Below are positions 10,090 to 45,733 of a stretch of 64,000 nt of DNA, in pieces (positions within the stretch are counted from its first letter, which is position 1; each line of letters starts with the position of its first letter). A model generated the notes under the pieces. The model saw only the letters and a program-made list of their open reading frames with translations, did no database searches and was not told the origin of the DNA. The translations under genes were made by a program, and so were the position numbers. Source of the DNA: an uncultured Solirubrobacterales bacterium (GTDB lineage Bacteria > Actinomycetota > Thermoleophilia > Solirubrobacterales > JBBDJG01); NCBI GenBank assembly GCA_963780475.1, contig CAWACB010000008.1, forward strand, positions 707,030 through 771,029, in the 5' to 3' direction.

Positions 10090-10155
10090 CGCTCCCCCAT
10101 CAACTCCCCTCGTAGTTCACCTCAAGGCCCGTCACCGGGCGCACGCCGCATTCTT

Positions 10156-11220
10156 CTACAAGAACGCCGAGCCGCGACGTACGAGGTTCTCGTAGATCGC
10201 GCCCTGGATCACTTCGCGCACGCGCTCGGAGATCTCGAACACGAGCGACCGGTCCTCCGCCGCCTCCGGCCCGTAACCGGAAAGATCGATCGGCTCGCAG
10301 AACTCGATGCGCCAACGCGAGGGCAGCGGAACGGTGCCGAACAGGCCGAGCGCGGGGAACGTCGGCGTGATCGGGAAGTACGGAGCACCGGTCAGCCGGG
10401 CCAGCAGGCGCGACTCGCCGAGCTTGGGGTAGGTCTCCTCCGAGCCGACGACGGCGACGGGCACGATCGGCGCGCCGGTGCGCAATGCGATCTCGACGAA
10501 TCCGCCGCGCCCGAAGCGCTGCAAGCGGTAGCGCTCGGAGAAGGGCTTGCCGGCTCCCCGGGAGCCCTCCGGGAACACCATCACCAGATGGCCCTGCTCG
10601 AGCAGGCGCATCGCGTTGAACGGCGATGCCACCACGCCGCCGACGCGGCGCATGAACGAGCTCACCCATGGAAGGCGGAAGGCCCAGTCCAGCACCATGA
10701 ACCGGGGCTGGCGCGGCAGGGGGTGGAGCTTCTGGATCGCGACCGACATCATGGTGGCGTCCCACGGGACGACTCCTGCGTGGTTGGCCACCAGCATCGC
10801 GCGGTCGTGGCCGGGAACGTGGTGCAGGCCCGTCGACTGCACCCGCCACCAGTGGTCGTACATGAACTCGAGAAGCGGGTAGACGATCTCGACGAACTCC
10901 TCGTCGTAGCCCCACTCGTCCTGCGCGTAGTCGCCGCGCATGCGGCGCACCGCGCGGTCGAGCACCTCGCGGCTCCAGCCGGGCATGGCGACGGCGGCGT
11001 GCTCGAGGGCGATCGGCAACTCGAACCGGGCCGCCATCGCCTCGCGCAGCGAAGCGGGGCGCGCCGAGTCGGGCGGCACGTGGCCGTTGCCGGTGTGGGT
11101 GCGCGTCTCCGTGGGCGGCCGGCTCGCGGGACGGCGCCGCGGCGGTGGCTGGGGCACGCCGGTGTCCACCCGCAGCCGGCGGGCGCGTTCGTGCTGCGCG
11201 CGGGCGCGCTCGTCCGTCAC
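10156..11220 (-). CDS. PlsC/GPAT-family glycerolipid acyltransferase
   Basis: Intact 354-aa ORF. Acyltransferase blocks LVANHAGVVPWD and VMVFPEGSRG, and IVPVAVVG. GTGA start/stop overlap with the upstream gene at 11217-11220. Confidence 0.8.
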   Translation of the reverse strand: MTDERARAQHERARRLRVDTGVPQPPPRRRPASRPPTETRTHTGNGHVPPDSARPASLREAMAARFELPIALEHAAVAMPGWSREVLDRAVRRMRGDYAQDEWGYDEEFVEIVYPLLEFMYDHWWRVQSTGLHHVPGHDRAMLVANHAGVVPWDATMMSVAIQKLHPLPRQPRFMVLDWAFRLPWVSSFMRRVGGVVASPFNAMRLLEQGHLVMVFPEGSRGAGKPFSERYRLQRFGRGGFVEIALRTGAPIVPVAVVGSEETYPKLGESRLLARLTGAPYFPITPTFPALGLFGTVPLPSRWRIEFCEPIDLSGYGPEAAEDRSLVFEISERVREVIQGAIYENLVRRGSAFL

Positions 11221-29268: not shown

Positions 29269-29297
29269 TGGTTCTTCGTTTCGGGAAGGGCCACTAG

Positions 29298-29591
29298 GTG
29301 GACAACGACTTCTTCGACTCCCCCCGCGTCAGCCGCGGAGGCGACTGGAGCGACGAGCCGCCGGCCGACCCGGCCGGAGCGAAGCAAGAGTTCCAGTGCG
29401 TGGAGTTCTGCCCCATCTGCCGCACGGCCGACGTGCTGCGCGTCGCGCTGCCGGATGAGTTCCAGGAGCACTGGCACGCGCTGCAGCGCGAGGGCCTGCT
29501 CGCTGCGCGCACGCTGCTGGACCACTACATCCAGCACTTGGAGGCGCGCCGGCCGCGCCCGGTGAACGTGGAGGACATCCCGATTGAATGA
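29298..29591 (+). CDS. small Cys-containing protein co-transcribed with the ArsA-like ATPase
   Basis: 97-aa ORF (GTG start) 30 nt after the ATPase stop. Contains CVEFCPIC. No family name recognised with confidence. Confidence 0.5.
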   Translation: MDNDFFDSPRVSRGGDWSDEPPADPAGAKQEFQCVEFCPICRTADVLRVALPDEFQEHWHALQREGLLAARTLLDHYIQHLEARRPRPVNVEDIPIE

Positions 29592-30213
29592 GCGCCAGGG
29601 GGATCCGCCGCCCGAGCCCGAGGCGCCGGAGCCCGACTGGCGCGCCGAGGGCGAGGCAACGCAGCCCGACTGGCGCGACGAGCGCGAGTGGGTCCAGGAG
29701 GAGGCGGCGGCACAGCCGCTCTGGACGCGGCTCCGCGAGGCGCCTTCCAAGCTGACCAGCGAGCAGAAGCTGGCTGGCGCCGCCGCAATCGGCATCGTGG
29801 TGTCGATGTTCCTGCCCTGGTGGCGCGATCCGGTGTTCGGGCTCTCGTACATGGCCTTCAACCGGTTCGGCTGGATCGAGCTGTCCCTGCTGCTGGTGGC
29901 GGGATCGGTTCTGTTCGCGCTGTTTCGGCGCGCCGAGGGCCGCGTGTTCCACCTGCCGCTCTCGGACGGGACGCTCGCCGCCGGGGCCGGGGTGTGGTGC
30001 TGCGTGTTGCTGTTCGCGCGGATCCTGGGCGAGCCGACCCGCACGGTCAACGGCCAGACGTACGGTTACGACCCGCGGTGGGGAATCTTCCTCTGCATGC
30101 TGTGCGCGGTGACCCTCGCGGTCGCGGGCGTCCTGGGCCGCCAGCGCCATCACCGCGGAGAGCCCGAGGCGCTGGCCGCGGACGAGGACGCCAACGCGAC
30201 GTTCACGGGTTAG
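29584..30213 (+). CDS. membrane protein (acidic N-terminus, about 4 TM helices)
   Basis: TTG start overlapping the previous stop. Hydrophobic helices (AAAIGIVVSMFLPWW, IELSLLLVAGSVLFALF, AAGAGVWCCVLLFARIL, IFLCMLCAVTLAVAGVL). Confidence 0.5.
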   Translation: MNERQGDPPPEPEAPEPDWRAEGEATQPDWRDEREWVQEEAAAQPLWTRLREAPSKLTSEQKLAGAAAIGIVVSMFLPWWRDPVFGLSYMAFNRFGWIELSLLLVAGSVLFALFRRAEGRVFHLPLSDGTLAAGAGVWCCVLLFARILGEPTRTVNGQTYGYDPRWGIFLCMLCAVTLAVAGVLGRQRHHRGEPEALAADEDANATFTG

Positions 30214-30827
30214 CGCTGCGCAGGCCGCAGCTTCCCAACGCCCGGCACGAAGCGCCCGACCCGGCCGGCGTATGCGCCATAGCTCTCGCCATGCGCGTTC
30301 AGCAGGTACGGCTCCTCCACGAGCCGGGTGTGTACCTCGAGCGCGGCGATCAGGGCGACAAACGCGGCCAGCGCGACGACGTTCGGGACGAGCAGCGCCA
30401 GGCCAAGCTGTATCGCGACCATCGCCGTGAAGATCGGGTTGCGAACGAGCTCGAAGGGGCCGCCGGTGACTAGCTCGGTGCGCTCCTGCTCGTCCACGCC
30501 GATGCGCCATGAGCGGCCCATCGCAGCCTGCGCAACGAGCAGCGCGGAAATGCCGGCCGCGAACAGGCCCACACCCAGCCACTGGGTCCAGCCGTGATCG
30601 AGCACGGAGACTGGCTCGAGGACGTCCGCGAGCTGGAGCACGGCGGCAAGCGGCCCGGCGAATACGGCGGTGATGAACAACACCCCTCCGAGCCATTCGG
30701 GCGATCCGACCGCGCCGCTCAGTCCCCGCCAGCCGGTCGAGCCCGTGCGCCGGCGCTGGATGGCGACTCGCAGGGCCACTGCGAGAAGGAGGTACACGCC
30801 ATACAGCGCGAGTGCGAGCCCGGGCAT
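30210..30827 (-). CDS. isoprenylcysteine carboxyl methyltransferase (ICMT/PEMT-like) family membrane methyltransferase
   Basis: Intact 205-aa ORF. LVTGGPFELVRNPIFTAMV and the EEPYLLNAHGESYGAY signature region, with 4-5 TM helices. Confidence 0.7.
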   Translation of the reverse strand: MPGLALALYGVYLLLAVALRVAIQRRRTGSTGWRGLSGAVGSPEWLGGVLFITAVFAGPLAAVLQLADVLEPVSVLDHGWTQWLGVGLFAAGISALLVAQAAMGRSWRIGVDEQERTELVTGGPFELVRNPIFTAMVAIQLGLALLVPNVVALAAFVALIAALEVHTRLVEEPYLLNAHGESYGAYAGRVGRFVPGVGKLRPAQR

Positions 30828-30831
30828 CCGA

Positions 30832-30996
30832 CTAGAACTGCGGCGCCAGCAGTCCGGCCACGAACACGATCGCGATCCCGATCAGTACGAAGACCTTGTA
30901 GCCGGACAGGTAGCCGAACGTGCCGACGCCGAAGCCGACGAGCATCAAAGTGATGATCGGCTCCGGCGACGTCTTGACTGCGAGGATCGCGAGCAT
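30832..30996 (-). CDS. 54-aa two-helix membrane peptide (below the ORF-track cutoff)
   Basis: My translation: MLAILAVKTSPEPIITLMLVGFGVGTFGYLSGYKVFVLIGIAIVFVAGLLAPQF-TAG. GAGG lies about 13 nt upstream of the ATG. The stop is 5 nt before the ICMT start. Confidence 0.35.
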   Translation of the reverse strand: MLAILAVKTSPEPIITLMLVGFGVGTFGYLSGYKVFVLIGIAIVFVAGLLAPQF

Positions 30997-31029
30997 GGCG
31001 GTCACGTACCTCTAAGTATCATCCGCGAT

Positions 31030-31947
31030 GTGTCCGCGGGCGTTACAGGCGAGCCTGCCTCTGTAGAGGAGGTCCGCGAGGGCCTCGGGCAGGCGGGCTA
31101 CCTGGCATCGGAATCGGCCGCGCTGGTCTCGTTCCTTGCCCACCGTCTCGGCAAGCCGGTGCTGGTCGAGGGCCCGGCCGGAGTCGGCAAGACGGAGCTG
31201 GCGAAGGCGCTTTCACGCCACACCGGCCGCGAGCTGGTGCGCCTCCAGTGCTACGAGGGGCTCGACGAGGCCAAGGCGCTGTACGAGTGGAACTACCGCA
31301 AGCAGCTGCTGCGGATCCAGACGGAGGCGGCCGGCACGGGCTGGAACGAGGTCCAGGAGGACATCTTCTCCGAGGACTTCCTGATGTCGCGCCCGCTGCT
31401 GACTGCGATCTCGACGGAGCAGCCCGTGGTGCTGCTGATCGACGAGATCGACAAGGCCGACCAGGAGTTCGAGGCGATGCTGCTCGAGGTCCTGTCGGAC
31501 TTCCAGATCTCGATCCCCGAGCTGGGCACGATGGTGGCGGCTACCCAGCCACTTGTACTGCTGACGTCCAACAACACGCGCGAGCTGACCGAGGCGCTGA
31601 AACGCCGCTGCCTGTACCTGTGGCTCGACTACCCGGACGCGGAGCGCGAGCTCGAGATCGTGCGACTGCACGTGCCGGACCTGTCGGAGACCATCGCGCG
31701 CCGGCTGATCGAGATCGTGCACATGGTCCGCAACCTGGACCTGAAGAAGCCGCCGTCGATCGCCGAGTCGATCGACTGGGCCCGGGCGCTGATGCTGCTT
31801 GGAGCGGACGACATCGACCGCGGCGTGTTCGAGCGCACGATCAGCATCCTGGTGAAGCACCGCACCGACCTGGACCTGGTGGCCGAGCGCGTCGGGATGA
31901 GGCTCGAGGGTGAGCAGCTCCTTCCCAAGTCAGCCGAACAGTCCTGA
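31030..31947 (+). CDS. MoxR-like AAA+ ATPase (CoxD-like)
   Basis: GTG 31030. Walker A GPAGVGKTELAK, Walker B VVLLIDEIDKAD, then LTSNNTRELTEALKRRCL. The part of ORF 30670.. upstream of this start overlaps minus-strand genes. Confidence 0.85.
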   Translation: MSAGVTGEPASVEEVREGLGQAGYLASESAALVSFLAHRLGKPVLVEGPAGVGKTELAKALSRHTGRELVRLQCYEGLDEAKALYEWNYRKQLLRIQTEAAGTGWNEVQEDIFSEDFLMSRPLLTAISTEQPVVLLIDEIDKADQEFEAMLLEVLSDFQISIPELGTMVAATQPLVLLTSNNTRELTEALKRRCLYLWLDYPDAERELEIVRLHVPDLSETIARRLIEIVHMVRNLDLKKPPSIAESIDWARALMLLGADDIDRGVFERTISILVKHRTDLDLVAERVGMRLEGEQLLPKSAEQS

Positions 31948-33344
31948 GCGCCCCGGCGGCGGTCGCCGCGGCGCGCTGTACGGCGGCCTGCCCGGTGCCG
32001 ACACGAGCGGCTTCGCGCCGCAACTGAGCCGTTTCTGCGACGAGCTGCGCACCGAGGGCGTGCGCATCGGCACGGCGGAGATGCTCGATGCCTTCTCGGC
32101 GCTCTCGCAAATCAGCTGGACGAGCCGCGAGGACTTCAAGGAGACACTCGCCGCCACGCTCGCGAAGTCGCAGGAGGACCGGCGCGTGTTCGAGCTGTTG
32201 TTCGACCGCTTCTTCTTCCGCTCGGTCGAGGCGCAGGCGGTCGAGAAGGGGCTCAAGGAGGAGCGCTTCGAGGGTGGCGAGCGGGTCGACCTCGATGACC
32301 TGCGCTCCCAGATCCAGGACGCTATCCGGCAGGGCCGCGACGGCCAGATGGCCGACCTCGCGCGCCTGGCGGTGGCAGCCTTCGGCGGGCAGGGCGAGAG
32401 CTCCGGGGTGATCGGGGTCGACGTGCAGCGCATCCGCCGCACGCTCGACCTGCGCCAGCAGCCGTCCGGGGGCGACGGCGACCCCGGCGTGGACCGCGAG
32501 GGGCTGCGGCGCTTCGAGCGCCACCTGCGCCGCGAGCTCGAGCGGGCGCTGATCCACCGCACCGAGAGCCTGCCTCCCACCCGCCCGCTCGCCGACCTCG
32601 ACCGCGCGCTTCCTGGCGCGCCGCTCCAGGACCTGGCCCAGGTCCACCGCGTCGTGGCGCAGCTGAAGCGGCGCCTCGCCACCCGCGGGCACGAGATGCG
32701 CGGGCGGCGCAAGAGCCGGGTCGTCGACGTCCGGCGCACGATGCGAGCCTCGCTCGAGACCGGCGGAGTTCCACTACGGCTGCGCTACCGGGCCAAGCGC
32801 CCGCGACGGCCGGAGATCTACGTCCTGTGCGACGTCTCGACCTCTGTCACCAGCGCGAGCGTCTTCTTCCTGTCCGTGCTGCACGCGCTCCACGACAGCT
32901 TCCGCAAGCTGCGCAGCTTCGCCTTCGTGGAGCGGATCGACGAGGTGACCGAGATCTTCGAGCGTGAGCGCAGCTTCGCCAAGGTCTCGGAGCGGATCGC
33001 GCGCGAGGCCGGCGTCGCCGACGTGTCGGGCTACACCGACTACGGGCGCGTCTGGCAGGAGTTCCTGGGCCGGGTGGCCGACGACCTCGACCCGCGCTCG
33101 ACCGTGATCGTGCTGGGCGACGCGCGCACGAACGGGCGCGAGCCGCACGCGCCGCTGTTCGGCCGCGTCTCGGCTCAGGCTGGGCGGACCTTCTGGCTCA
33201 ACCCGGAGCCCAAGCTCTACTGGAACTACGGCGACTCCGTGATGGCCGCCTACGAGCCGTACTGCGACTGCCGTGTTCGAGTGCTGGACGACCAAGCAGC
33301 TCGAGCAGTTCGTGAACGTCGTTGCCGGAAGCACCAGCTCCTAG
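31910..33344 (+). pseudogene. VWA-domain protein, CoxE-like (1 frame change near 33268)
   Basis: Overlaps the MoxR 3' end. MIDAS-type IYVLCDVSTSVTS, VLGDARTNG and FWLNPEPKLYWNYGDS. The C-terminus AVFECWTTKQLEQFVNVVAGSTSS-TAG lies in another frame. Confidence 0.75.
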
Positions 33345-33400
33345 CCTCTGACGGCCTCCCGCGGTGGGCCCGGGCCGGCGACGCCGGCGCGCCGGCGGCC

Positions 33401-34148
33401 GTGCGGGTGTCCGGCGTGCACAAGCGGTTCGAGAGCCCGCCGCGCAGACGTCGTGGCGCTCGACGGACCTGACGCTGTCCGTGGTCGCGGGCGAGCGGAT
33501 CGGGCTGGTCGGCCCCTCGGGCAGCGGGAAGTCGACGCTGCTGGAGTTGATCGCCGGGCTGGAGGACATCGACGCCGGGTCGATCCGGTCCACGGCGAGG
33601 AGACCGCGGCGGGCCGGCTGCGCCGCTGTGCCCTGATGCCGCAGCGGGACGGCCTGCTTCCCTGGCGCTCGGCGCTCGACAACGCCGCGCTGGCGCGCGA
33701 GCTGGCCGGCGAGCGGCGCGGCGCGGCGCGCGCGGCCGCCGCGGAGCTGTTCGGGCGCTTCGGCCTGGCGGGCTTCGAGCAGGCGCGTCCCTACGAGCTG
33801 TCAGGCGGGATGCGCCAGCGCGTCGCGTTCGCCCGCACGATGCTGTCCGGCAAGCCGGTGCTGCTGCTGGACGAGCCGTTTGCCGCCCTCGACGCGATCA
33901 CCCGCGCGGAGATGCAGGAGTGGCTCGACCGGACCCTCGCCGACGAGGCGCGCACGGTCGTGCTGGTCACCCATGACGTGGAGGAGGCGCTCTACCTGTG
34001 CGACCGCGTCGCCGTGCTGACGCCCCGCCCAGGGTCGGTGCGTGCCTACGTCGAGGTGCGCGCCGCGGCCGGGGCGGATCGGACCGAGACGGTCACCTCG
34101 CCCGAGTTCGTGGAGCGAAAGCACCGCGCGCTGGAGGCGCTGCGGTGA
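33401..34148 (+). pseudogene. ABC transporter ATP-binding protein, NitT/TauT (SsuB/ThiZ-like) family; 3 frame changes between 33430 and 33590
   Basis: [12 protein letters not shown] / ADVVALDG / [37 protein letters not shown] / ...LSGGMRQRVAFARTM..LLLDEPFAALD..VLVTHDVEEA, read across three frames. Confidence 0.7.
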
Positions 34149-34904
34149 GGGCCTGGCTCGTGAAATGGGTGCCGCCGCTGCTGGTGATCGCCCTGCTGGT
34201 GGCCGGCTGGGAGGCGCTGGCCCGCCTGGGATCGGTGGAGGACTATCTGCTCCCCGCACCATCAGACGTCGCGCGGGCGCTCGTGGAGGACCGCGACCTG
34301 CTGCTCCCTGACGCCTGGGTGACCCTGCGCGAGGTGCTGTTGGGCTTCGCGCTCGCGCTCGCCGCCGGCCTCGGCGCCGCGACGCTGCTGCACCTGTCTC
34401 CGGTCGCCCGGCGGGCCCTCTACCCGCTCGTGGTGGGGTCCCAGGCGATCCCCGTGATCGTGATCGCGCCCATCCTCGTGATCTGGTTCGGCTTCGGCAT
34501 GACGCCCAAGCTGATAGTCATCGCCCTCATCTGCTTCTTCCCGATCACAGTCAACACGCTCGACGGCCTCGCCTCGGTCGACCCCGCACAGGTCAAGATG
34601 CTGCGCACCCTGGACGCCTCCCGCTGGCAGGTGTTCCGGCGCCTGGAGCTGCCGTCCGCGCTGCCCTACGTCTTCTCGGGCGCGCGCGTGGCGGTGGCGG
34701 TGGCGGTGATCGGGGCGGTGTTCGGGGAGCTGGTGGGCTCGGACGAGGGCCTTGGGCACGCCATCCAGATCGGGACCGCACAGCTGCTGACGGCGCGGGT
34801 GTTCGCCGCGACCCTGCTGCTCGCCGTGATGGCGATCGCGCTGTTCGCCCTGATCGGCCTGGTGCAGCGGCGCGCGGTGCCCTGGGCCGGGAAGGGAGCG
34901 CTGA
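34145..34904 (+). CDS. ABC transporter permease (SsuC/ThiX-like); 3' end uncertain
   Basis: GTGA overlap with the ATPase stop. EAA-type loop region (LDGLASVDPAQVKMLRTLDASRWQVFRRLELPSALP). As assembled the frame runs on into the next gene without a stop. Confidence 0.7.
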
Positions 34905-35933
34905 TGAGGCTCCGCGCGCCCGCGGGCGCTGTCGATCGCCGCCCTTGCAGCCCTGCTGCTGGGCCTGGTCGCGGCCGGCGTGCGGAGAGAAGGACGAGAC
35001 GGTCACCGGCTCCGTCGAGCAGCGCGGGATCGACCTGGCGCTGGACTGGTTCCCGAATCCCGACCACGTGGCGATCTACGAGGCGATCGACCGCGGCTAC
35101 TACAAGCAGGTCGGCCTCGACGTGAAGCCGCGCACCCCGTCGGACCCCTCGGCGCCGATCAAGGAGGTCGCGGCGGGCCGGGTCGACGTCGCGATCTCAT
35201 ACGAGCCCGAGGTGCTGCTCGCGCGCGAGCGGGGCTGCCGGTGGTCGCGATCGCGGCGATGATCCAGGAGCCGCTCACGTCGCTGATGGCAACCGGTTCG
35301 TCGGGCGTGCGCTCCGTCAAGGACCTGCGCGGAAAGCGGGTCGGCACCGCCGGCATCCCCTACCAGTCGGCCTATCTGCGAGACGATCCTCGACCGGGCG
35401 AACGTGCCGGAATCCTCGGTGAAGGAGACCAACGTCGGCGCCAGCCTGCTGCCCGCGATGCTGTCCGGCAAGGTCGACGCGACGCTGGGCGGGTTCTGGA
35501 ACGTGGAGGGCGTGGAGCTGCGCCTGCGCAAGAAGCGCCCTGGATCCGCCCGGTGGACCGGCTCGGGGTCCCGGACTACGACGAGCTGGTGCTGGTGGCC
35601 CGCGAGAGCGACGTCTCCGAGCGCCGCGACGACCTGCGCCTGTTCATCTCGGCCACCGCCCGCGGCGCCAACCAGGCCCGCCGCGACCCCGGGCAGGCCG
35701 CCCAGGCGCTGCTCGACGCCAATCCCGACCTGAAGGAGCGGTTCACCCGCGCGAGCGTGCGCGCCACGATCCCGGCCCTGTTCCCCGAGAAGAGCGACCA
35801 GCCGTGGGGCTACCTGGACGCCGTGCAGTGGCGCAACTTCGGCGGCTGGATGGTGGACAACAAGCTGCTCGAGGACCTGCCGGACGTGGACGCGGCGATC
35901 ACCGACGACCTGCTGCCCGGCGCCGGGCTGTAG
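34904..35933 (+). pseudogene. NMT1/THI5-like (ThiY-like) substrate-binding lipoprotein; at least 4 frame changes
   Basis: MRLRA..ALSIAALAALLLGLVAAGCGEKDE (lipobox) is spread over 3 frames. Then IDLALDWFPNPDHVAIYEAIDRGYYKQVGLDV, LPVVAIAAMIQEPLTSLMA, KVDATLGGFWNVEGVEL and a C-terminus ending LLPGAGL. Confidence 0.65.
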
Positions 35934-36298
35934 AAAGTCCCGCAGTCCGGCAGCGGCATGTGACGGCGGCGCTCACGCGCGCCGAGCACGTGCACGTCCA
36001 CCAGGAACGAGCGCGTGCCGACGCACGTTGCGGGCCGGTGCCTTGCGCTGCGGCCACGGCGCACCACGGTGGCGCCGCGCCGGCTGCGCAGGACGCGCAG
36101 CGTCGAGCACGGCCAGCACGCTGGCGACTCCGCCGGCGGCCAGGGCGGCCGGGCCGCGTCGGCAGGCGGATCGCCGGCAGGAAGCCGCGACGCCGCTCCA
36201 GGGCGCGACCGGGGCCGGCAACGGGCACGGGGTGGCCCGACTGCCGTGTCTGGTCCACGGGCACGAGTGTTGGAGTGTAGAGGGGTGGTGGGATGAGA

Positions 36299-37429
36299 CT
36301 ACAGCTGCTTCTCGAAGATCCGGTACCGCTTGACGATCTTGCCGCCCATTCCCTCCATGGCCCGGTTCATGGGCTCGTTGGTCTCGAGGATCCAGCCCAT
36401 CTCGCCCCACCAGATGCCGTCGGGGTCGGCCTCCACGAGGTGCTCGATGTAGAAGGCGGCCGCGATCCCGAGGTGCTGGTGCTCGGGCTTGACGCCGAGC
36501 GCGAACACCCGGCAGCCGTCGATCTTGCGCCGCTGCCAGAGGAACTTCGCCCAGCCGAACGGCAGCAGCCGGCCGTTCATGTGCGCCAGCGCCTGGTTGA
36601 TGTCCGGCAGCGTCAGCGATGCGCCCAGGATCTCGCCGTCGCGCTCGGCGATCCAGGTCCAGTGCTCGTCCAGGATCGGCTTCAGGTCCTTGGCGTAATG
36701 GCGGACCTCCTTCTCGTTCAGCGGCACGAAGCCCCAGTTGCGCTGCCAGGCGGCGTTGTAGACCTCCAGGAAGCGCCCCAGCTCGGCCTCGAAGTCGCCC
36801 TTGCGCATGTGCCGGATCGTGACTCCGTGCTCCTCGCGCACCTTGCGGGCCGCCTCCTGGATCATCGGGTGGAAGCCGCCCTTCTCCTCCACCTTGTCGA
36901 GCCGCAGCTCCCACATGTAGAGATCCATCGCCTTGTCCAGCCCCCACCCCTCGAGCAGCTCGCGGTAGTAGGGGTGGTGCCAGCCCTGCAGGATCTGGGG
37001 CCGCCGGTCGTGGCCCTCGACCAGCAGCCCGCACTCGTCGTTGGTGGTGAAGTCCATCGGGCCCACCATCCGGTCCCGGCCACGCTCGGCCAGCCAGGAT
37101 TGGGCGGTCGAGAGCAGGGCGTCGGCGATGGCCGGGTCGTTCTCGGCCTCGAAGAACCCGAACAGCCCCCACTCGTTGTTCTGGAACTCGTTGAACGTGT
37201 GGTCGATGTGGGCGCTGATCCGGCCCACCGGCTGTCCGTCCCGCCAGGCCAGGAACAACTCCACGTCCGTGTGCTCGAAGAACGGATTCCGCTTGCGGTC
37301 GAGGAATTGCCGCCGTTCGCGCAGAAGCGGTGGGACCCAGTTCGGCTCGTTACGATAGAGCCGCCACGGCAGCTTTATGAAGCGCATCAGGTCGCGCCGA
37401 GATGTCACCGGTCTGACCTCAACGCTCAC
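36299..37429 (-). CDS. GNAT-fold acyltransferase of the BioF2-like / FemAB-like type
   Basis: ORF 36299..37639 trimmed to GTG 37429 (VSVEVRPVTSRRDLMRFIKLPWRLY). Intact 376 aa (FGFFEAENDPAIADALL, MDFTTNDECGLLVEG, WHHPYYRELLEGWG, RVFALGVKPEHQHLGIAAAFY). Confidence 0.7.
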   Translation of the reverse strand: MSVEVRPVTSRRDLMRFIKLPWRLYRNEPNWVPPLLRERRQFLDRKRNPFFEHTDVELFLAWRDGQPVGRISAHIDHTFNEFQNNEWGLFGFFEAENDPAIADALLSTAQSWLAERGRDRMVGPMDFTTNDECGLLVEGHDRRPQILQGWHHPYYRELLEGWGLDKAMDLYMWELRLDKVEEKGGFHPMIQEAARKVREEHGVTIRHMRKGDFEAELGRFLEVYNAAWQRNWGFVPLNEKEVRHYAKDLKPILDEHWTWIAERDGEILGASLTLPDINQALAHMNGRLLPFGWAKFLWQRRKIDGCRVFALGVKPEHQHLGIAAAFYIEHLVEADPDGIWWGEMGWILETNEPMNRAMEGMGGKIVKRYRIFEKQL

Positions 37430-37448
37430 GCGCGGCAAGCTAACCCAT

Positions 37449-38753
37449 ATGCCGGAGACCTCGAGCACACCCGCCACGGTCCCTGACCTGTTCGCCAAGG
37501 CGCGCAGCCACGATCGCCGCGAGCTGATCGACATGGCGCGGGAGAACGACCTCCTGCCGTATTTCCGCGAGGTCGAGTCCGAGCCGGGGCCGGTGGTGCA
37601 GATGGAGGGCCGGGACCGACTGATGCTCGGCTCCAACAACTACCTCGGGCTGACCGGCGACCCGCGGGTCAAGGAGGCGGCCCGCCAGGCCCTCGAGCGC
37701 TATGGGACCGCCCTCACCGGGTCTCGCCTGATGAACGGCACGCTGCCCATGCACCGCGAGCTCGAGCAGATGATCGCCGACTGGATGCAGACCGAGGACG
37801 CGCTGGTCTTCACGACGGGCTATCAGGCCAACGTGGGCGCGCTGTCGTCGATCCTGAGCGCCTCGGACACCGTGATCGCCGATTCCGGTGACCACGCGTC
37901 GATCCTCGACGGCTGCAAGCTCTCGGGCGCCCGGCTGCGCCCCTTCCGCCACGGCCGGCTCGACAAGCTCGAGACCATGCTGGAGCGGTCTGCGGGCGAC
38001 GGAGGCGGCACCCTGGTGGTGGTCGACGGCGTGTACTCGATGGAGGGCGACGTCTGCGACGTCGCCTCTGTGGCCGCCCTCTGCCGCCGCCACGGCGCCC
38101 GCCTGATGGTGGACGAGGCCCACGGGGTGGGCGTCCTGGGAGCCCGCGGAGCGGGCGCTTCCGAGCTCTACGGGGCCGAGCGCGAGGTGGACCTGCGGAT
38201 GGGAACCTTCTCCAAGTCGCTGGCCAGCTGCGGCGGCTTCATCGCCGGCCCGGCCGAGGTGATCGACTTCATGCGGATCTCGGCGCGCTCCTTCCTGTTC
38301 ACCGCCGCCGCCGTGCCCGCCGCGGTGGCGGCCGCGCGGGAGGCGGTACGGATCTGCGCTTCGTCCGAAGGCCCCGAGCTGTTCGCGCGCTCCCTCGGCA
38401 ACGCCGCCTATCTCGCGCGCGGCCTGCGAGAGGCGGGCCTGCGCGTGCTGACGCCGGCGCCGCTCGAGGACGGCGACTGAGGTGATCACGCCGATCGTGC
38501 CGATCCTCGTCGGCGACGATGTGCTCGCGGCGACGCTCTGGAAAGCGCTTTGGGACGAGGGGATGTACACCAACGTGGCCCTCTATCCCGCCGTTCCGCC
38601 GTCCGGCGCGCTGATCCGGACCAGCGTGATGGCCACCCACGAGCGCGAGCATCTGGACCAGGCGATCGAGATCGCCGCGCGGGTCAGGCAGCGGATGCCG
38701 AGCTTCCCGGCCCGGAGCAGGCCTCAGCCGCCGAGGGGCCTTCGGGCACCTGA
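37449..38753 (+). pseudogene. alpha-oxoamine synthase, serine-palmitoyltransferase-like (2 frame changes near 38478 and 38675)
   Basis: LGSNNYLGLTGDPRV, GSRLMNGT, VVVDGVYSMEGD, VDEAHGVG and the PLP-lysine motif MGTFSKSLASCGGF. GSRxxNGT plus GTFSKS is SPT-like rather than BioF/Kbl-like. The tail (ITPIVPILVGDD..ALYPAVPPSGALIRTSVMATH) is in a second frame. The probable stop TGA 38751-38753 is in a third. Confidence 0.75.
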
Positions 38754-38806
38754 GGAACTTAGAAATAAAAAGGTCGCTCTTAGCGCCCCGGGTTGTGAAC
38801 GAATCG

Positions 38807-38834
38807 TTGACGGCCGGACGCGGTCGAGTAAGGT
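38807..38834 (+). promoter_or_regulatory. candidate sigma-70-type promoter
   Basis: TTGACG, a 16-nt spacer, then TAAGGT, in an AT-enriched stretch about 200 nt upstream of the mIHF-like start. Confidence 0.3.
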
Positions 38835-39036
38835 GCCGCCGAGTTCGGAACGGCCCCCTTGCCTGGTGAGTCCAAACCTCGATTCTGGGGGGACCTGGAG
38901 GGTCCGGTATCTGCGGAATCGGAGAGAGCCGCAGGAGCCGGCGTGGGCCAGGTGCGAGAGGGCCCGGGCCGAGCGTGGGCAAGTCCAGTCAGTCAGTCAT
39001 TCTCTATAGATGCCTACTCAGCACCTGGGAGGTGTA

Positions 39037-39402
39037 ATGCACGCTGCCACCACGTCCGCTGCCCCGCAGTCTGCAGGACCGCAGCACATGCTGGCCTTGG
39101 AACGAGCCAACCGTGTGCGTCTCGCCAGAGCGGCGCTCAAGCGCCGGATAGCTGCGGGGAAAGTGGATACCGCCGAGGTGGTGCTCTCGTGCCCTTGGGA
39201 AGTCGAAAGCATGGCGGTCAGTGAGCTGATCATGAGTCAACGCAGGTGGGGACGGACCCGCACCCGCAAGTTCCTCGACACGATCGGCCTGTCAGAGACC
39301 AAGACCGTCGGCAGTCTGACCGAGCGGCAGCGCGTGACGCTGGCCGCGCTCCTGACGGCCAAGGCAAGGGCTGCACGGGCTCAGACCCTGCGCGAAGCCT
39401 GA
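39037..39402 (+). CDS. mihF: actinobacterial integration-host-factor (mIHF/sIHF)-like small DNA-binding protein
   Basis: ATG 39037 lies 4 nt after the GGGAGG SD. ALERANRVRLARAALKRRIAAGKVDTAEVV...MAVSELIMSQ..RKFLDTIGLSETKTVGSLTERQR follows the mIHF pattern (basic helix plus helix-hairpin-helix with G(I/L)SE(S/T)). It is divergent from canonical mIHF. Confidence 0.5.
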   Translation: MHAATTSAAPQSAGPQHMLALERANRVRLARAALKRRIAAGKVDTAEVVLSCPWEVESMAVSELIMSQRRWGRTRTRKFLDTIGLSETKTVGSLTERQRVTLAALLTAKARAARAQTLREA

Positions 39403-39605
39403 TTTTCCGAGCCGCCGGCGGAAGGGCACACGCCCCTCCGTCGGCCGGCACGGCCTTCTTCTCACGGCGGATCTACAAGCCGGCCGACGGCTCAAGTCCC
39501 CGCGCAGCTAGGCCGATCCCGAGGGACGGGCTCGTAGGAAAGCGGCGTCGGATACAGCGCGGGTCGCCGCGTCTCCTCGTTGCGTTTCAGCGGCACGCTG
39601 AGCCC

Positions 39606-39649
39606 GCTGGTCGAGATTTAGCACCACATAGTGCTTTTTCTCGACCAGC
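39606..39649. repeat. 44-nt interrupted palindrome / long hairpin
   Basis: GCTGGTCGAGA-TTT-AGCAC-CACATA-GTGCT-TTT-TCTCGACCAGC. The 11-bp and 5-bp arms are perfectly complementary. The centre is AT-rich. Lies between convergent genes. Confidence 0.5.
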
Positions 39650-39720
39650 GCCGTCCGCGGGTCGGACCGAGGGCGTCAGACGAAAGTGCCACGAACCGCG
39701 TGGGAGAGAAACCGCGAGCG

Positions 39721-39804
39721 CGCAAAATCACGCCAACCTCCCTACCTGCTCAGGCCTCCCCGCAAAATCACGCCAACCTCCCTACCTGCTCAGGCCTGCC
39801 CGCA
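39721..39804. repeat. 40-bp tandem duplication (2.1 copies)
   Basis: cgcaaaatcacgccaacctccctacctgctcaggcctccc (39721-39760) is repeated at 39761-39800 with one substitution (c to g). The next 4 nt, cgca, start a third copy. Non-coding. Confidence 0.85.
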
Positions 39805-39833
39805 CCGCGGCGAGCGCGTGCGGGCCCAGCCAC

Positions 39834-40293
39834 CTAGCGGACCTTGAACCCGAGCCCGCCCGAGCGGCGCTTGAAGGCCTCTCGCAGCAGATAGCCGCCG
39901 ACCACGAACACAACGATCGAGGCGGCGAAGGCGACGATCCCGCGGCCAGCCCCCCGGTAGGAAGAAGCCGACGCCGAGGATCAGCACCGCCGGCGCGCCG
40001 GCCAGCACGGTGGTGTGCGAGCGGTAGCCGGCGAAGTGCTCGCGGATCGCGAGCTCGAGGCCGGCGAGCGATCCCAGCGCGACGCCGGCGGCGATCAGCG
40101 TGATTCCCCTGTCTCCCTGGACGAAGAAGCCGGCGACCAGCATCACGAGCGCCAGCAGGACCACCAGCTCCACCAGGGGGAACTTGCCCCAGGGCGCGGG
40201 CGGGCGGTCCGGAGGGCCGGAGCGCGCCGGCCGGGCGGGCCGGGGGGCCTCGCCGGCGTCCGGGGCCGCGCTTCGGCGGGGGCTCGTAGTCAT
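39834..40293 (-). pseudogene. small membrane protein (1 frame change near 39950)
   Basis: MTTSPRR...WGKFPLVELVVLLALVMLVAGFFVQ..ITLIAAGVALGSLAGLELAIREHFAGYRSHTTVLAGAPAVLILGVGFFLPG continues in another frame as GLAAGIVAFAASIVVFVVGGYLLREAFKRRSGGLGFKVR-TAG. Confidence 0.45.
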
Positions 40294-40406
40294 CCGTCGG
40301 CCGGCGCCGCTTACGGCGCTGTCCCTGCGGCATGCTCAGAGCCTCCGGGTGGGCCCGGGAACGAGGGTCGGAACGGGGTCGCGGGGACGGGCCCGCGCCC
40401 CTGGAG

Positions 40407-40874
40407 TCACGGGCAGCCGGAGGAGATCCGGATGCGCCACCAGCCGAGCAGCATGCCGATCAACCCGAGCCGGGGACGCGAGTGCCAGTGCTTGCAGCCG
40501 GGCTCCCCGATGTCGTGGTTCGAGACGCGCACCCACTTGAAGCGCTCGGGCTCGGCGAGCATCCGCTCGATCGTCTCGGCGTTGCCCCGCTCCACGAGGT
40601 TGCGGCGCCGCAACTCGGCCCGTGCCTCCTCCAGGCGCTCCGCCAGCCGGTCGCGGATCTCCTCCAGCTGGCCCACGCCGAGCAGCCGCGGGCCGCCGGC
40701 CGAACCGACGCTCCAGTCGATGCCGCGGCGCGGGTAGGCGGCGGCGAAGGTACGCGCCAGCTCGCGCTCGAGACGGGCGATCTGATCGCGCAGGGAACGC
40801 CGTGCGGCCGCGTCGTCGGTGCCGGTGCGAAGCGGCGGGAGAACCGCCCTCTGTCGTTGAGCGAGCTGCGGCAT
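40407..40874 (-). CDS. conserved hypothetical protein
   Basis: Intact 155-aa ORF. Coiled-coil N-terminal half and a C-terminal KWVRVSNHDIGEPGCKHWHSRPRLGLIGMLLGWWRI segment. No family name recognised. Confidence 0.55.
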   Translation of the reverse strand: MPQLAQRQRAVLPPLRTGTDDAAARRSLRDQIARLERELARTFAAAYPRRGIDWSVGSAGGPRLLGVGQLEEIRDRLAERLEEARAELRRRNLVERGNAETIERMLAEPERFKWVRVSNHDIGEPGCKHWHSRPRLGLIGMLLGWWRIRISSGCP

Positions 40875-40884
40875 CGATCAGAGT

Positions 40885-41536
40885 CTAAACCCGCACGATC
40901 CCCGAAGCGCACCAGAGCGCCTCTTCGACGTTGATCTCCGGCACCCCGCCGACGCGCACGGCCGCCAGCGCGATCAGCCGCGTCTGCTTCGTGACCTCGA
41001 ACCCGCGAGCCGTCTCGCCGAAGATCAGCCCCACCGGGCAGCGCTCGTCGGCCAGCACGATGGTGCCCGAGTCGAGCTTCAGCGGCCCGTCGCCGAGCAG
41101 CTCCTCCGGGCCTGTCAGCCGCAGCCCCAGGCGGCCCGTTAGCTTGTCGGCATCGAAGGCGCGCACCGCGACGCCCGTCTCGACCACCGCCACGGTGAGC
41201 GCGTCCTCGACGAGGTCGTGGCTCTTGAACCGCCCTGCCCGCAGGCGCTCGAGCATCACCGCCTCGGCCGGCGGGCTGGAACTCGTCCGGGTCGATCCCC
41301 ACCTGGCGGAAGAAGATCCGGTAGGCGCCGGCGACCGGCTCGCGGCGCAGGTTCAGGACCCGCTCGCCGTGCACCCGGTCCGACAGATGGCGCAGGCGCT
41401 GCTTCACCGGCCGCGGGCTGCGGCCCGTGCGGCCCTCCACGATCGTGTAGCGCAGGCCGAGCCCCTGGAACTCGCTGCGCAGCGAGGACTCGACCCAGCC
41501 CTCCTCCACCGGCAGCTCGTCGACCCCGGACGTCAT
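40885..41536 (-). pseudogene. B3/B4 (PheT-like) domain protein, COG3382-like (1 frame change near 41270)
   Basis: MTSGVDELPVEEGWVESSLRSEFQGLGLRYTIVEG...VAGAYRIFFRQVGIDPDE, then MLERLRAGRFKSHDLVEDALTVAVVETGVAVRAFDADKL... Confidence 0.6.
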
Positions 41537-42246
41537 TGCCGCGCTCGCGCCGCCCGCACCCGGGCGCGCCGCTCGGAGACCCGCACGAGCTCGCGCACGC
41601 GCCGGATCAGCTCCTGCTCGTCCACCTTCCCCAGCGCCGTGTCGGCCAGCACGCCGCGAGGATATGCAAAGAAGGTCGTCGGCCCCACGCCGACGCTGTA
41701 GAGCGTGCTGACCGCGCCGTCGCGGTCGACCGCCATCGGGAACCCCCACCCGTTCCTCTTCGTGATCTCACGCGCCTTGTCCTGGGAATCGCGCACGTCG
41801 AGCCCGACGAAGGCCACCTTCGGGAACATCCGCCGCACGCGGTCGACGATGTCGAGCTGCTCCTCGCAGTTGCCGCACTTGCTGAACCACGCCACGAGGA
41901 CGAGCGGCCGGTCGAAGTAGTCGCAGATCCGGATGGCGTCGCGATTTGGCACCTGGCAGGCCGGCATGTGATCCTTGCCGGCGGCCTCCCGGTTCTGGAA
42001 GACGTTCGCGTCGCCCTCGAGGGAGCCGGTCGCGGAGGGGGCCGCGAACTTCGGCAGGCTCGTCCCGGGCTGCAGGCCCGCGCGCCCGGATTGTCCTGGC
42101 CGAGGAGGCTGATGGCAGCGAAGCCGATCACGGCCAGGAACAGGATGCCGACCGCGATCGAGTAGGGCCGCGTCGGGGCCGGGCGCTCCTCTTCCTCGCG
42201 CTCGGAGGCGAACGGGTCGCGCGGGTCGGTCACCGTGCCCGCCGGA
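41533..42246 (-). pseudogene. TlpA/ResA-like membrane-anchored thiol-disulfide oxidoreductase (1-2 frame changes; 5' end uncertain)
   Basis: TM anchor YSIAVGILFLAVIGFAAISLL. Thioredoxin fold with PLVLVAWFSKCGNCEEQL (CxxC) and GWGFPMAVDRDGAVSTLYSVGVGPTTFF. Confidence 0.6.
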
Positions 42247-44796
42247 ACGGCCGCATGCGAAGGGCGGCCAGCGCCTCGGCCCGGCTGCGCGGCAACCGCA
42301 CGTCGCGGGCGCGTTCGGCGCAGCGCGAACGCTGCAGGAGCCAGCAGCGCCACGCCGGCGAGCCCGATCAGGGCGCCGGCGGCGCCCGCCAGCCCGAAGT
42401 CGCGCAGGGTCTGCGGCCCGGCCGCGATCAGCGCCAGGAAACCGAGCACGACGGCGACGTTGGCGGCGCACCTCGACCCGGCCGAGCACGAGCCCATCCG
42501 GGGGCTCGCCGGCGAGCGCGCGACGTACGAGGACCAGCGCGAGCGGCGCCAGGACCGCGGCGACGCACACCCCCAGCACGGCGGTGAGCGGGTCGAGCGG
42601 CATCCCGAGCGCCCACGGCACCAGCCAGACCCAGCCGCCTGCAAGGGCCAGCGGCACCAGCGCCAGCAGTCCGCGCACGCCGGCGGCCGCCACCAGGACC
42701 AGAGCAACCGCCGCCAGCGTGGCGACCAGCAACCACCAGCGCGCCCCTTCCAGATCGTCGCCGGAGTCGGCCTGCTCGACCAATGCGCCCGCGAGCCGTG
42801 CCTCGACCGGCGGCGGCGGGTCGAGCTGGGCCCGCATGTCGTCGAACAGCTTCTGTTGCTCGGAGACCGGCATGTCGCGGACGCTGAACGCCATGTTGGC
42901 CGCGGAGCGGTCGCGGGCGAGCGCGTTCTGCGAGAAGCCCTGCGGCAGGGCGCGCACAAGCGCCCGCGCCGCTCGGCGCGTGCGCGGGACCTGGTTGTTG
43001 AAGAGGCCCGTCAGCGACAGCGCCGGGCACAGGTCGGCCTGCCGGCAGGGTTGCCCGGCGCGCCACCCGTGCCGCCGCGCGACCCGAGCCTGATACTCGG
43101 ACATCCAGCGCAGCACCGCCGGATTGGTGACGTCCGCTGCCCTGACGAGCACGGACACGTCGCCCGCCGCGCCGGTGTCACTCCGCAGCGCGGCAGCGTC
43201 GCTCGACCTCGGCAGCGCCTCCGGGCAGCTGGCGCTCCAGAGAGCGGCCAGGCTCCAGCTGGGCGGCTCCGATCCATCCCACGATCGCGACCAGCAGCCC
43301 ACGGCGGCCAAGGCGCGGCCCGGCCGGTGACGGCCGCCCGACGGCGACTGCCACGCGGACCGGCCACAGCGTTCTGCCGAGCGCGGAAGTGCCGGGAGGT
43401 CGGCGGAACTGCCGGCTGCCGGACTGCTGCGACTGCCGCTCGCCCACAACGCCGCGGCGCCGGCCGCCGACGGTCACCGCGAGGACGAGCAACAGACCCC
43501 GAGCACCAGCAATCCGCCCAGGTCCCGCACCGATGGCACCGGCGCGAGCAGCAAAGCCGCACAGCCTGCCGCCGCCGCCAGCCCAAGCGGAAGCAGTGCG
43601 GCGAATGCGCGCGCTGCGAGCGCCCCCTCCCGCGGACCGCCGCCCAGCGCGCCGGCGAAGCGCATCACGAAGCCCGTGCCGAGGGCGAGGACGAGAGCGG
43701 CGAACGCGACCGACGTCGCGGTCAGGTCGATGCCGAAGACCGCCGCGATTCCGGCGAGGATCGCGGTCGCCGCCGCGGCCAGTGCCACGGGGACGAACCA
43801 GCGCGCGCCGGTCCTGGTCAGCCACGCGAGCACTGCCAGCAGGAGCAGGGCCACCAGTGCCGCGAGCACCAGCGCACCGTCGGCTCTGCCCGCGGCCGCG
43901 TTCTCGGTGAGCGGGACGCCGGACAGGGAGTAGCGCCCGTACTTGAGGCTGAACTTGTCGCTGTCCACGGCGCGCCGCACCATGTCGATCGCCTCGCGGC
44001 GCTCGGCGTCGCTCAGGCCCGGCTTCAGCCGCGCCTGGATCAGCGCGGTGTCCTTGTCCGGGAACACGTAGGAGAACCGCGGCTTGGGCACCTCGCCCCC
44101 GAGGCGCGGCGCGAAGACGAGCTGCAGGACGAAGTCGGGGTTGTTGAGCGCCGGGATGCTGGTCAGGCCGTACTTGAGCGCCAGCTGGGCGCCGGATTCC
44201 TGGAACTTCGCGTAAACGAGCTGGCGCGCGCTGCGGGCGGCGTTGTCCTGCTCTTCCTTCGTCAGGCCCTGCGCCCGGGCCACCTTGCGGGCCGCCCCGG
44301 CGGCCCGCCGGGCCTCGCGCTCCTGGCCGGACTGCTCCAGGCCGAGCTCGCGCAGGAAGCGCCCGGCCGCCTCGTTGACGAAGGTGCCGGGCCCGTAGAC
44401 GACCTGCATCGGCTTCTCACGCCCCAGCTCGGAACAGACGGGGTCGACCGGCTTTGCGCGCCGTGGGATGTTGCCCCCGAGACAGCCCTCGAGACCCAGC
44501 ATCGTCGCGAGGTCGCGGGTCAGCAGCATCCCGGTCAGCTTTCCGTGCACCCGGATCGTGATCGGCTCGTCGCCGAAGTCCTGGTGCAGGTCCGCCGTCG
44601 CCCGGGCCGAGCCGTCGTCCCCGTCGATCAGCTTTCCGGTGGAGCCGCTGAAGTCGAGCAGGAAGGCGAGGCCCAGACCGATAACGGCCAGCGCCCCCAC
44701 CACGGCCAGCACGAGGCGCCCGCGTCGCAGGCACGCGGACACGACCCGCTCGAGAGCGGCGCCGGCGCGGACGGTTGGAAGCCTCATGCGCGCCAT
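42240..44796 (-). pseudogene. RND-superfamily MMPL/HpnN-like transporter (several frame changes; 3' end uncertain)
   Basis: TM1 plus a roughly 270-aa extracytoplasmic loop (ORF 43474..44796) and a TM2-6 bundle. A second loop and a second TM bundle lie in the frames of ORFs 41533..43449 and 41607..42959. No stop separates it from the TlpA-like frame as assembled. Confidence 0.65.
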
Positions 44797-44827
44797 GGGC
44801 GCGCCCTGAAGTTAGATCGCTGCGTCT

Positions 44828-45733
44828 CTATTCCATCCCGAGCGGCCCGGCTGAGTCGCCCGCGAGGAACTGCCGCACGAACTTGTTGTCGGACTCGAAC
44901 AGGTCGTTCCGCAGTCCCGACTCGACGATCTTGCCGCGCCACAGGATGGCCATGAACTCGGCCAGCCGCCGCGCCGAGGCGATGTCGTGAGTGATCACCA
45001 CGTAGGTGCCGCCGTTCTCCTCGTGGATCGCGCGAATCAGGTCGCAGAGCAGTGCCGTGCGCACCGGGTCGAGCCCCGAGTCGGGCTCGTCGAACAGCAC
45101 GATCTCGGGATCCAGCACGAGCGCCCGCGCGAACCCTGCGCGCTTGCGCATACCGCCCGAGAGCTCGTTCGGCATCTTCTCCTCCGCCCCGCCGAGGCCC
45201 ACCTCGCGCAGGCGGCGCTGGACGATCTCCCGGATCTCGTCCTCCGACTTCTCCGTGTGCTGGCGAAGCGGGAAGGCGACGTTGTCGTAGAGGTTCATCG
45301 ATCCGAACAGCGCGCCGTCCTGGAACAGCACCCCGAACTTCTTGCGCATCTCGAACAGCTCGTCATCGGTCATGTCGGGCACCGACTGGCCCTGGACGAG
45401 CACGTCGCCCCCGTCCGGGTACAGCAACCCGACCATGTGCTTGATGCAGACCGACTTCCCGGTGCCCGAGGGGCCCAGGATCATGGAGATCATTCCCTGA
45501 GGGATCCCGAGGTTGAGGCCGTCGAGCACCGTGTTGCGCCCGAAGCGCTTGACCACGTCGATGAACTCGACCTCGTCCTCCCGGCCGTGGTCGCGGACGG
45601 TGCCGTGGAAGGCGAACTTGTCTTCTTCCAGCGCTGGGTCGCCGGCCAGCCGCTTGTGAACGTCCGACTCGTCCGGCGGGGGTGCCGCCGCGGGGTCCTG
45701 ACGCAGGTCGCCTTGTCCGTCTCCGTTGCTCAA
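44828..45733 (-). CDS. mkl: Mkl/MceG (MlaF-like) ABC ATPase
   Basis: Intact 301-aa ORF. GPSGTGKS, LSGGMRKRAGFARAL and VLFDEPDSGLDP, plus the C-terminal MlaF-type extension (FVRQFLAGDSAGP). Confidence 0.85.
   Translation of the reverse strand: MSNGDGQGDLRQDPAAAPPPDESDVHKRLAGDPALEEDKFAFHGTVRDHGREDEVEFIDVVKRFGRNTVLDGLNLGIPQGMISMILGPSGTGKSVCIKHMVGLLYPDGGDVLVQGQSVPDMTDDELFEMRKKFGVLFQDGALFGSMNLYDNVAFPLRQHTEKSEDEIREIVQRRLREVGLGGAEEKMPNELSGGMRKRAGFARALVLDPEIVLFDEPDSGLDPVRTALLCDLIRAIHEENGGTYVVITHDIASARRLAEFMAILWRGKIVESGLRNDLFESDNKFVRQFLAGDSAGPLGME

Follow-up and report, generated by a model that had tools for sequence, protein, structure and literature searches.

The bacterial synthesis of ceramides by a serine palmitoyltransferase (Spt), an N-acyltransferase acting as bacterial ceramide synthase (bCerS) and a reductase (CerR) was worked out in 2021–2022, in Caulobacter crescentus and in E. 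coli B strains (Olea-Ozuna 2021 and Stankeviciute 2022, cited in PMC9386255, PMC11087976 and PMC11324152). The Caulobacter bCerS, named CerS or CC_1154 (= CCNA_01212; PMC11324152; PMC9393093), appears in the entry 'aca: CC_1154, yghO ECD_02850, Swit_3908, ...' among the N-acyltransferase genes required for dihydroceramide, in a paper that also reports an active Spt from E. coli BL21 (PMC9386255). In one model N-acylation comes before reduction, and the pathway has already been predicted in some Gram-positive groups (PMC11087976). Its spread beyond Proteobacteria and Bacteroidota is known mostly from gene searches. Here we describe a candidate locus in the Thermoleophilia, an abundant class of soil actinobacteria: two divergently transcribed genes, encoding an alpha-oxoamine synthase (AOS) of Spt type and a GNAT-family N-acyltransferase, in a stretch of 64,000 nucleotides from an uncultured Solirubrobacterales bacterium (contig CAWACB010000008.1, positions 707,030 to 771,029; hereafter the window). 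The window has a G+C content of ~70%, and its nearest relatives are metagenome-assembled genomes (MAGs) of Solirubrobacterales and Thermoleophilales, both in the class Thermoleophilia. The locus probably encodes the first two enzymes of a bacterial ceramide-type pathway. Its features, in window coordinates, are these:

36299–37429, minus strand: predicted tandem-GNAT N-acyltransferase of the YghO/bCerS family, an intact open reading frame (ORF) of 376 aa
37430–37448, no strand: gap of 19 bp between the divergent start codons, read from the sequence
37449–38474, plus strand: N-terminal 342 codons of the Spt-type AOS, in frame 0 (from ORF, Pfam and tree)
38475–38480, plus strand: one G too many at 38475, which creates the in-frame TGA at 38478–38480 (from DNA alignment with the related loci L003, L005 and L006, and from a frame switch in third-position GC content, GC3)
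38476–38699, plus strand: conserved C-terminal segment of the AOS (TEVITPIVPILVGDD...RQRM), in the +1 frame only (from GC3, tblastn and alignment)
38700–38753, plus strand: AOS tail (ELPGPE...), with frame 0 restored by a deletion of 1 nt (from DNA alignment with relatives)

The divergent pair that the original prediction had read from the sequence is real, with the 376-aa GNAT ORF lying opposite an AOS gene that starts at the ATG at 37449 on the plus strand. The gap between them is as tight as had been claimed, although it measures 19 bp rather than 20 bp, and start codons are spaced equally closely in relatives (20 bp in L001 and L002, 40 bp in L006, and overlapping in L003). The AOS motifs named in that prediction are likewise present, GSRLMNGT being encoded at 37719–37742 and GTFSKS at 38202–38219, with the PLP (pyridoxal phosphate) lysine codon at 38214–38216. 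Rfam, promoter and terminator scans of 35900–39500 gave no matches.

The product of the AOS gene matches Pfam Aminotran_1_2 (157 bits) and, when aligned to Spt structures, shows the PLP-dependent AOS fold with the motifs GDHASI and VDEAH in addition to the catalytic lysine motif GTFSKS. With its frame repaired (discussed below), it aligns end to end with orthologues of 418–441 aa at 72–95% identity, and neither the AOS nor the GNAT departs from its alignment at any invariant residue. Among proteins of solved structure, its best relatives are the Spts of Sphingobacterium multivorum (301 bits) and Sphingomonas (259 bits), with lower scores for a Thermus AOS (233), Kbl (214) and BioF (172), and the top NCBIfam models for the repaired protein are two Spt models (384 and 366 bits), above BioF (338) and Kbl (322). 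The AOS phylogeny that the original prediction had proposed places it accordingly: in a distance-based neighbour-joining tree (47 sequences, 384 columns, 300 bootstraps), the GNAT-linked AOS and three validated Spts are split from Kbl, BioF and 5-aminolevulinate synthase (ALAS) with 91% bootstrap support, and Kbl forms a clade at 100%. The Spt references were those of S. multivorum and S. paucimobilis, both read from PDB alignments, and the E. coli BL21-type Spt; the outgroup references were four Kbl, three BioF (E. coli K-12 Kbl and BioF included) and two ALAS, those not from K-12 being taken from annotated plasmids. Within the Spt-type group, the Thermoleophilia AOS form their own clade at 100%, with a weak sister relationship (46%) to proteobacterial Spts. 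In single residues, the window AOS resembles the Sphingobacterium Spt at one motif (YPAVP in the window, SPAVP in Sphingobacterium) and has a leucine at the position aligned with Arg378 of the Sphingomonas Spt, in the numbering of published work on that enzyme. This AOS is the only one that tblastn found in the window, and homologues of BioA, BioB, BioC, BioD and Tdh were found nowhere in its 64 kb, which bears out the earlier remark that no biotin genes are nearby.

The GNAT is highly conserved, with thousands of homologues, of which the best 120 are all at least 71% identical to it. Its Pfam matches are weak but above threshold (Acetyltransf_1, and Acetyltransf_6 with 31 bits over residues 190–281, the latter being the 'BioF2-like acetyltransferase domain' of InterPro), and sequence searches of NCBIfam and PDB gave no matches to it. 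An AlphaFold (AF2) model (pLDDT 90, pTM 0.88) has a tandem-GNAT fold whose nearest Foldseek matches, a tandem GNAT of the clavulanate pathway, MAB_4324, a glucosamine N-acetyltransferase and MshD, amount to a generic match. A more specific relative is E. coli YghO, reached through tblastn of annotated plasmid records, which BLASTP aligns over 376/380 residues at 37% identity (E=1e-80). Since YghO is listed with CC_1154 among the N-acyltransferases required for dihydroceramide, and the E. coli cluster described there is the one in our yghO record (PMC9386255), the bCerS-type GNAT of the original prediction holds up as a full-length YghO homologue, and membership of the window GNAT in the YghO/CC_1154 (bCerS) family is supported at the level of sequence. 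The record in question, from E. coli PN43 (L091, NZ_MG591698.1), is a 354-kb 'plasmid' with the core chromosomal genes glcCDEFGB and lptF/G paralogues besides yghO, and two further E. coli 'plasmid' records among the matches are 4.8–4.9 Mb long; all three are probably chromosomal sequence filed as plasmid. Thermoleophilia also carry YghO-family copies without a nearby AOS (L057, L017, L026, L041, L051, L052, L054 and L055). In L057 (7240–16768), for example, the neighbours are a saccharopine-dehydrogenase-like protein, a flavin monooxygenase, a ketoacyl synthase, an EPSP-synthase::AMP-binding fusion and an acyl-CoA dehydrogenase.

The association of the two proteins extends well beyond the window. 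A scan with a 13-sequence alignment retrieved 80 species-level genomes with the GNAT, and in 54 of them an AOS lies beside or near it, adjacent in nearly all. In ~39 of these 54, all Thermoleophilia/Actinomycetota, the pair is divergent; in the 15 genomes from other phyla, the usual arrangement is an AOS immediately upstream of the GNAT or fused to it. Such pairing of a GNAT with an Spt-type AOS is far beyond chance. Fusion is itself common: a search of a representative library found a 780-aa protein made of an AOS domain followed by a GNAT domain, and when this protein was used as the query, nearly all of the 120 matches listed were full-length AOS::GNAT fusions of ~770–860 aa (catalogued as L007–L010 and as proteins P0167 and P0271–P0389). 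More than 100 protein clusters have the two domains fused into one protein, and those of the matches listed that carry an NCBI name come from five or more phyla, among them Ignavibacteria, Chlorobi, Kapabacteria, Armatimonadetes and Bacteroidetes; some are already named 'bifunctional aminotransferase class I/II-fold PLP-dependent enzyme/GNAT family N-acetyltransferase'. The GNAT domains of these fusions are ~32–42% identical to the window GNAT and the AOS domains ~40–46% identical to the window AOS, the difference being that the fusions are single polypeptides and the window has two divergent genes. Because of the fusions and the conserved adjacency, we regard the GNAT as a partner of the AOS and not as a bystander. 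Outside Thermoleophilia the pair also has company: in 11 of the loci from other phyla it is adjoined by a short-chain dehydrogenase/reductase (SDR) of the epimerase/3-beta-HSD family, homologous to the CerR-like gene of E. coli (23–35% identity, E=1e-24 to 1e-38). A CerR-like SDR also accompanies it on the Streptomyces and Rubrobacter plasmids described below, and head-group enzymes of the PAP2 type or of the lipoteichoic acid (LTA)-synthase type are often present in this whole set of loci. One fusion (L010) sits in an operon of SDR, fusion and PAP2 (PAP2_3) genes.

The proposed function has three steps. In the first, the AOS would join a long-chain acyl thioester to an amino acid, L-serine being the likeliest, to give CO2 and a 3-keto long-chain base, an alpha-amino ketone, as its homology suggests. 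In the second, for which homology, fusion and neighbourhood argue, the GNAT would N-acylate this aminoketone with a second acyl thioester, giving a 3-keto-dihydroceramide-like N-acyl aminoketone. The third, reduction of the 3-keto group by a CerR, may be encoded elsewhere, be carried out by a non-orthologous reductase or be absent. Homology, fold, phylogenetic placement, conserved adjacency and fusion are matters of direct observation; aminoketone formation followed by N-acylation is a well-supported prediction, and which amino acid is used, how long the chains are and what becomes of the 3-keto group are predicted less firmly. The core of the original prediction, an Spt-like AOS and a bCerS-type GNAT in a candidate ceramide or N-acyl-aminoketone pathway unrelated to biotin, came through each test that was run, on the strength of the tree placement, the YghO homology, the co-location and fusion, and the lack of biotin genes in the window. 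The widespread Spt::bCerS fusions also provide independent genomic support for N-acylation directly after the Spt step, and frequent fusion fits the model in which N-acylation precedes reduction.

Several observations weigh against a ceramide-type pathway. The repaired AOS falls below the curated NCBIfam cut-offs for Spt equivalogs (384 against 640 bits for the CFB type, 366 against 500 for the beta-proteobacterial and 291 against 670 for the alpha-proteobacterial model), and the intact AOS of relatives fall short of them as well. The AOS gene does not read through as a single open frame over 37449–38753, since frame 0 terminates at the TGA at 38478–38480. The route from the GNAT to CC_1154 passes through E. 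coli YghO and the published list of orthologues, and YghO-family paralogues occur in other contexts, so that family membership does not fix the substrate. In the window, tblastn with the SDRs of E. coli, Streptomyces, Rubrobacter and L010 found no orthologue of CerR; the search for such a reductase, which the original prediction had suggested, yielded a sole SDR match of 56 bits (9337–10089), and the window thus holds no complete ceramide cluster with a CerR-type reductase beside the pair. A CerR-like SDR, a dedicated acyl carrier protein (AcpR), an acyl-ACP synthetase (AasR) and PAP2 are all lacking from the window and also from the 10 kb around the pair in the ~39 Thermoleophilia genomes. 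In the literature searched, we found no report of sphingolipids in Thermoleophilia and no paper in which bCerS is connected to Thermoleophilia or Rubrobacter. The 56-bit match is the N-terminus of a 660-aa fusion (8107–10089, minus strand) of a fatty-acyl-reductase-type NAD_binding_4 domain and an SDR. This gene adjoins one for a PlsC/DAGAT-like acyltransferase (both within 8107–11220, minus strand), ~26 kb from the pair, and the two are a separate lipid-modifying pair, possibly for a wax ester or ether lipid.

An alternative that we consider unlikely is that the two enzymes perform the same chemistries to make something other than a sphingolipid. The AOS could use another amino acid (glycine, alanine or cysteate) or a short or medium acyl chain, and the GNAT would cap the unstable aminoketone to form an N-acyl aminoketone signal or secondary metabolite; if the N-acyl aminoketone is the product, the lack of a linked CerR in Thermoleophilia is explained. 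The absence of CerR, acyl carrier protein (ACP) and AasR genes near the pair in the window and in the ~39 Thermoleophilia loci fits this explanation, as do the unmet Spt cut-offs, the weak link between the Thermoleophilia clade and proteobacterial Spts, the occurrence of YghO-family paralogues in clusters for non-sphingolipid lipids or secondary metabolites, and the addition of a condensation-domain protein in the Streptomyces cluster described below. However, the AOS is nested among validated Spts and AOS that are linked to bCerS and CerR, and the window GNAT is as similar to YghO as are the GNATs of Streptomyces and Rubrobacter, which occur in full triads. Bacteroidota, too, scatter these genes over the genome and still make sphingolipids (PMC11334938).

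A second alternative, which we rate as rather improbable, takes the interrupted AOS frame at face value: the locus would be a decaying pseudogene, its pathway in the course of being lost and its GNAT either kept for another role or due to follow. The original prediction had given the AOS an end at 38753 as one ORF, which is only the stop of frame 0 and overlooks the interruption. DNA alignment with the three intact relatives (L003, L005 and L006; ~83–88% nucleotide identity) resolves the interruption into two indels, one G inserted at 38475 and one base lost between 38699 and 38700. Between them, the ~74 conserved C-terminal codons (38476–38699) sit in the +1 frame, and after the second indel the final 17 AOS codons and the stop return to frame 0; GC3 changes frame at ~38470, and tblastn with an intact orthologue divides the AOS between two frames in the same way. 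The stop of the relatives, TAG, reads CAG in the window, which extends frame 0 to the TGA at 38751–38753. Decay would be in keeping with an in-frame TGA that follows an insertion of 1 nt, with indels that both lie outside homopolymers and with the altered stop. It would also suit the neighbouring Zn-dependent alcohol dehydrogenase (Zn-ADH), which is intact directly downstream of the AOS in L001 (7633–8652), a 120-aa remnant in L002 (7324–7686) and absent from the window (38754–39009) and from its closest relatives, in what looks like gene loss in progress, as well as the retention of a GNAT without any AOS in some Thermoleophilia loci (L034, for example).

What argues against decay is the state of the shifted segment and of its surroundings. 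The segment has a GC3 of 0.87–0.97 and ~61% amino-acid identity to L001, the residues that are invariant in a three-sequence alignment with L001 and L002 are all at positions that the window shares, the –1 indel offsets the +1 indel, and the AOS of a close relative that is 95% identical to that of the window (L005) is intact. The GNAT gene has no indels relative to L003, L005 and L006. Moreover, comparison with intact L001 orthologues shows frame splits in no fewer than five further conserved genes that lie no more than 20 kb away: a VWA/CoxE gene, a B3_4 gene, a gene for an NMT1-type binding protein, a small ORF and an MMPL gene. Frame-split genes are seen throughout 29000–45000 of the window (for example at 33268/33273, 35235–35541, 39914–39943 and 41271–41282), a pattern that suggests either widespread pseudogenes or an assembly prone to errors and probably built from long reads. 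The same kind of split is seen in four further Thermoleophilia AOS genes, every one from a MAG with an 'MFD' name, a naming that we take to denote a long-read survey. Because close relatives are intact and several window genes are frameshifted, and because the shifted segment keeps its high GC3 and identity and other 'MFD'-named MAGs have AOS genes split likewise, an assembly error is the most likely explanation of the frameshift, ahead of decay. We also considered a programmed +1 frameshift at GAC-TGA and rejected it: the sequence has no slippery site or Shine-Dalgarno-like stimulator, relatives carry plain in-frame sequence, and other genes in the window are shifted too.

The last alternative, that the AOS is Kbl (threonine catabolism) or BioF (biotin synthesis) and the adjoining GNAT unrelated, is very improbable and largely refuted: the AOS shares with these enzymes the PLP fold-type I AOS superfamily at 28–31% identity, their HMM scores are only 46–62 bits under the best Spt score, and the Zn-ADH after the AOS of L001 has Tdh-like similarity (167 bits), but that ADH is 28% identical to E. 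coli Tdh, far under the Tdh cut-offs of 380 and 458 bits and thus no Tdh equivalog, and has no tblastn match in pair-carrying loci other than L001, where alone it is full-length, and L002, and the AOS itself misses the curated cut-offs (322 against 460 for Kbl, 338 against 426 for BioF), lies outside both the Kbl clade and BioF, has no tdh or bioA/B/C/D genes in the window and, as its fusions and conserved adjacency indicate, has the GNAT as a partner. We therefore rejected the idea of a Kbl-tdh pair on the ADH and on the tree, and a BioF identity on score, gene context and tree placement.

Two further features of the surroundings are recorded here. Just past the AOS stop, at 38755–38772 and ~240 bp upstream of an IHF-like gene, lies the AT-rich motif GGAACTTAGAAATAAAAA, which is kept in L003 despite the background of ~70% G+C and has no Rfam, promoter or terminator match. 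The pair is also surrounded by MMPL, ABC transporter and MoxR/VWA genes in an order that is conserved within Thermoleophilia only. We considered a functional link of the pair to these genes and, because the conservation stops at Thermoleophilia, treat the synteny as inherited gene order.

The locus and its ~39 syntenic relatives place the first two genes of the pathway in Solirubrobacterales and Thermoleophilales, soil bacteria that are common and yet seldom cultured. It is possible, and we suggest this with some doubt, that a minimal two-gene Spt-bCerS module, to which no CerR, ACP or acyl-ACP synthetase gene is linked, gives Thermoleophilia ceramide-type lipids or 3-keto-ceramides left unreduced. 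If true, a major lineage without any report of sphingolipid-like lipids would join their makers, and the 3-keto group would either be reduced by a non-orthologous enzyme or be retained, with a keto-ceramide as the end product.

In comparison with the systems described earlier, the window shares with E. coli and Caulobacter (PMC11324152) an Spt-type AOS and a YghO-family GNAT encoded as separate divergent units, and the same two chemistries would be expected of it. The E. coli yghO gene is divergent from an operon for a fatty acyl-AMP ligase, an NAD-dependent epimerase, an ACP and an AOS, and is adjoined by lptF/lptG paralogues, whereas the window has no CerR-like epimerase, AcpR, AasR or Lpt paralogues near the pair. 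Its proteins are 37–38% identical to their E. coli counterparts, and its AOS, compared with the Spt of that system, is below the curated cut-offs. The host is also different, an actinobacterium (Actinomycetota, Thermoleophilia) and not a proteobacterium, from a class that is Gram-positive and monoderm. Another comparison is with Rv0032 (BioF2) of Mycobacterium tuberculosis. A 2026 review describes this protein as an uncharacterised Spt-like AOS that has an additional domain at its N-terminus and fails to complement a bioF mutant (PMC12910592). The locus may be the split version of this fusion, as the original prediction proposed, the Acetyltransf_6 match of the GNAT and the review's description being indirect leads. 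In domain order, however, Rv0032 has its AOS last, whereas the YghO-family fusions found here have the AOS first and the GNAT at the C-terminus, and there was no GNAT-first protein of ~780 aa among the best 150 representatives.

The Spt/bCerS/CerR pathway itself is already published and its known chemistry is unchanged by this locus; what is new is the lineage, with the possible twist that no CerR is linked, and the value of the finding lies in annotation and distribution and not in a new mechanism. The closest counterparts in the same phylum carry the same two protein families on plasmids, one of Streptomyces sp. NBC_01001 and plasmid 1 of Rubrobacter radiotolerans, with AOS 40–44% and GNAT 38% identical to those of the window. 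Unlike the bare divergent pair of Thermoleophilia, both plasmids have full, co-directional operons: AOS, GNAT, an epimerase that is a CerR-like SDR and a condensation-domain protein in Streptomyces, and AOS, GNAT, an NAD(P) oxidoreductase that is a CerR-like SDR and an LTA-synthase-family protein in Rubrobacter. The Rubrobacter operon (strain RSPS-4, L098, 14230–19822) is annotated only generically, and as it is complete and its host is cultured, R. radiotolerans is an easy target for lipidomics.

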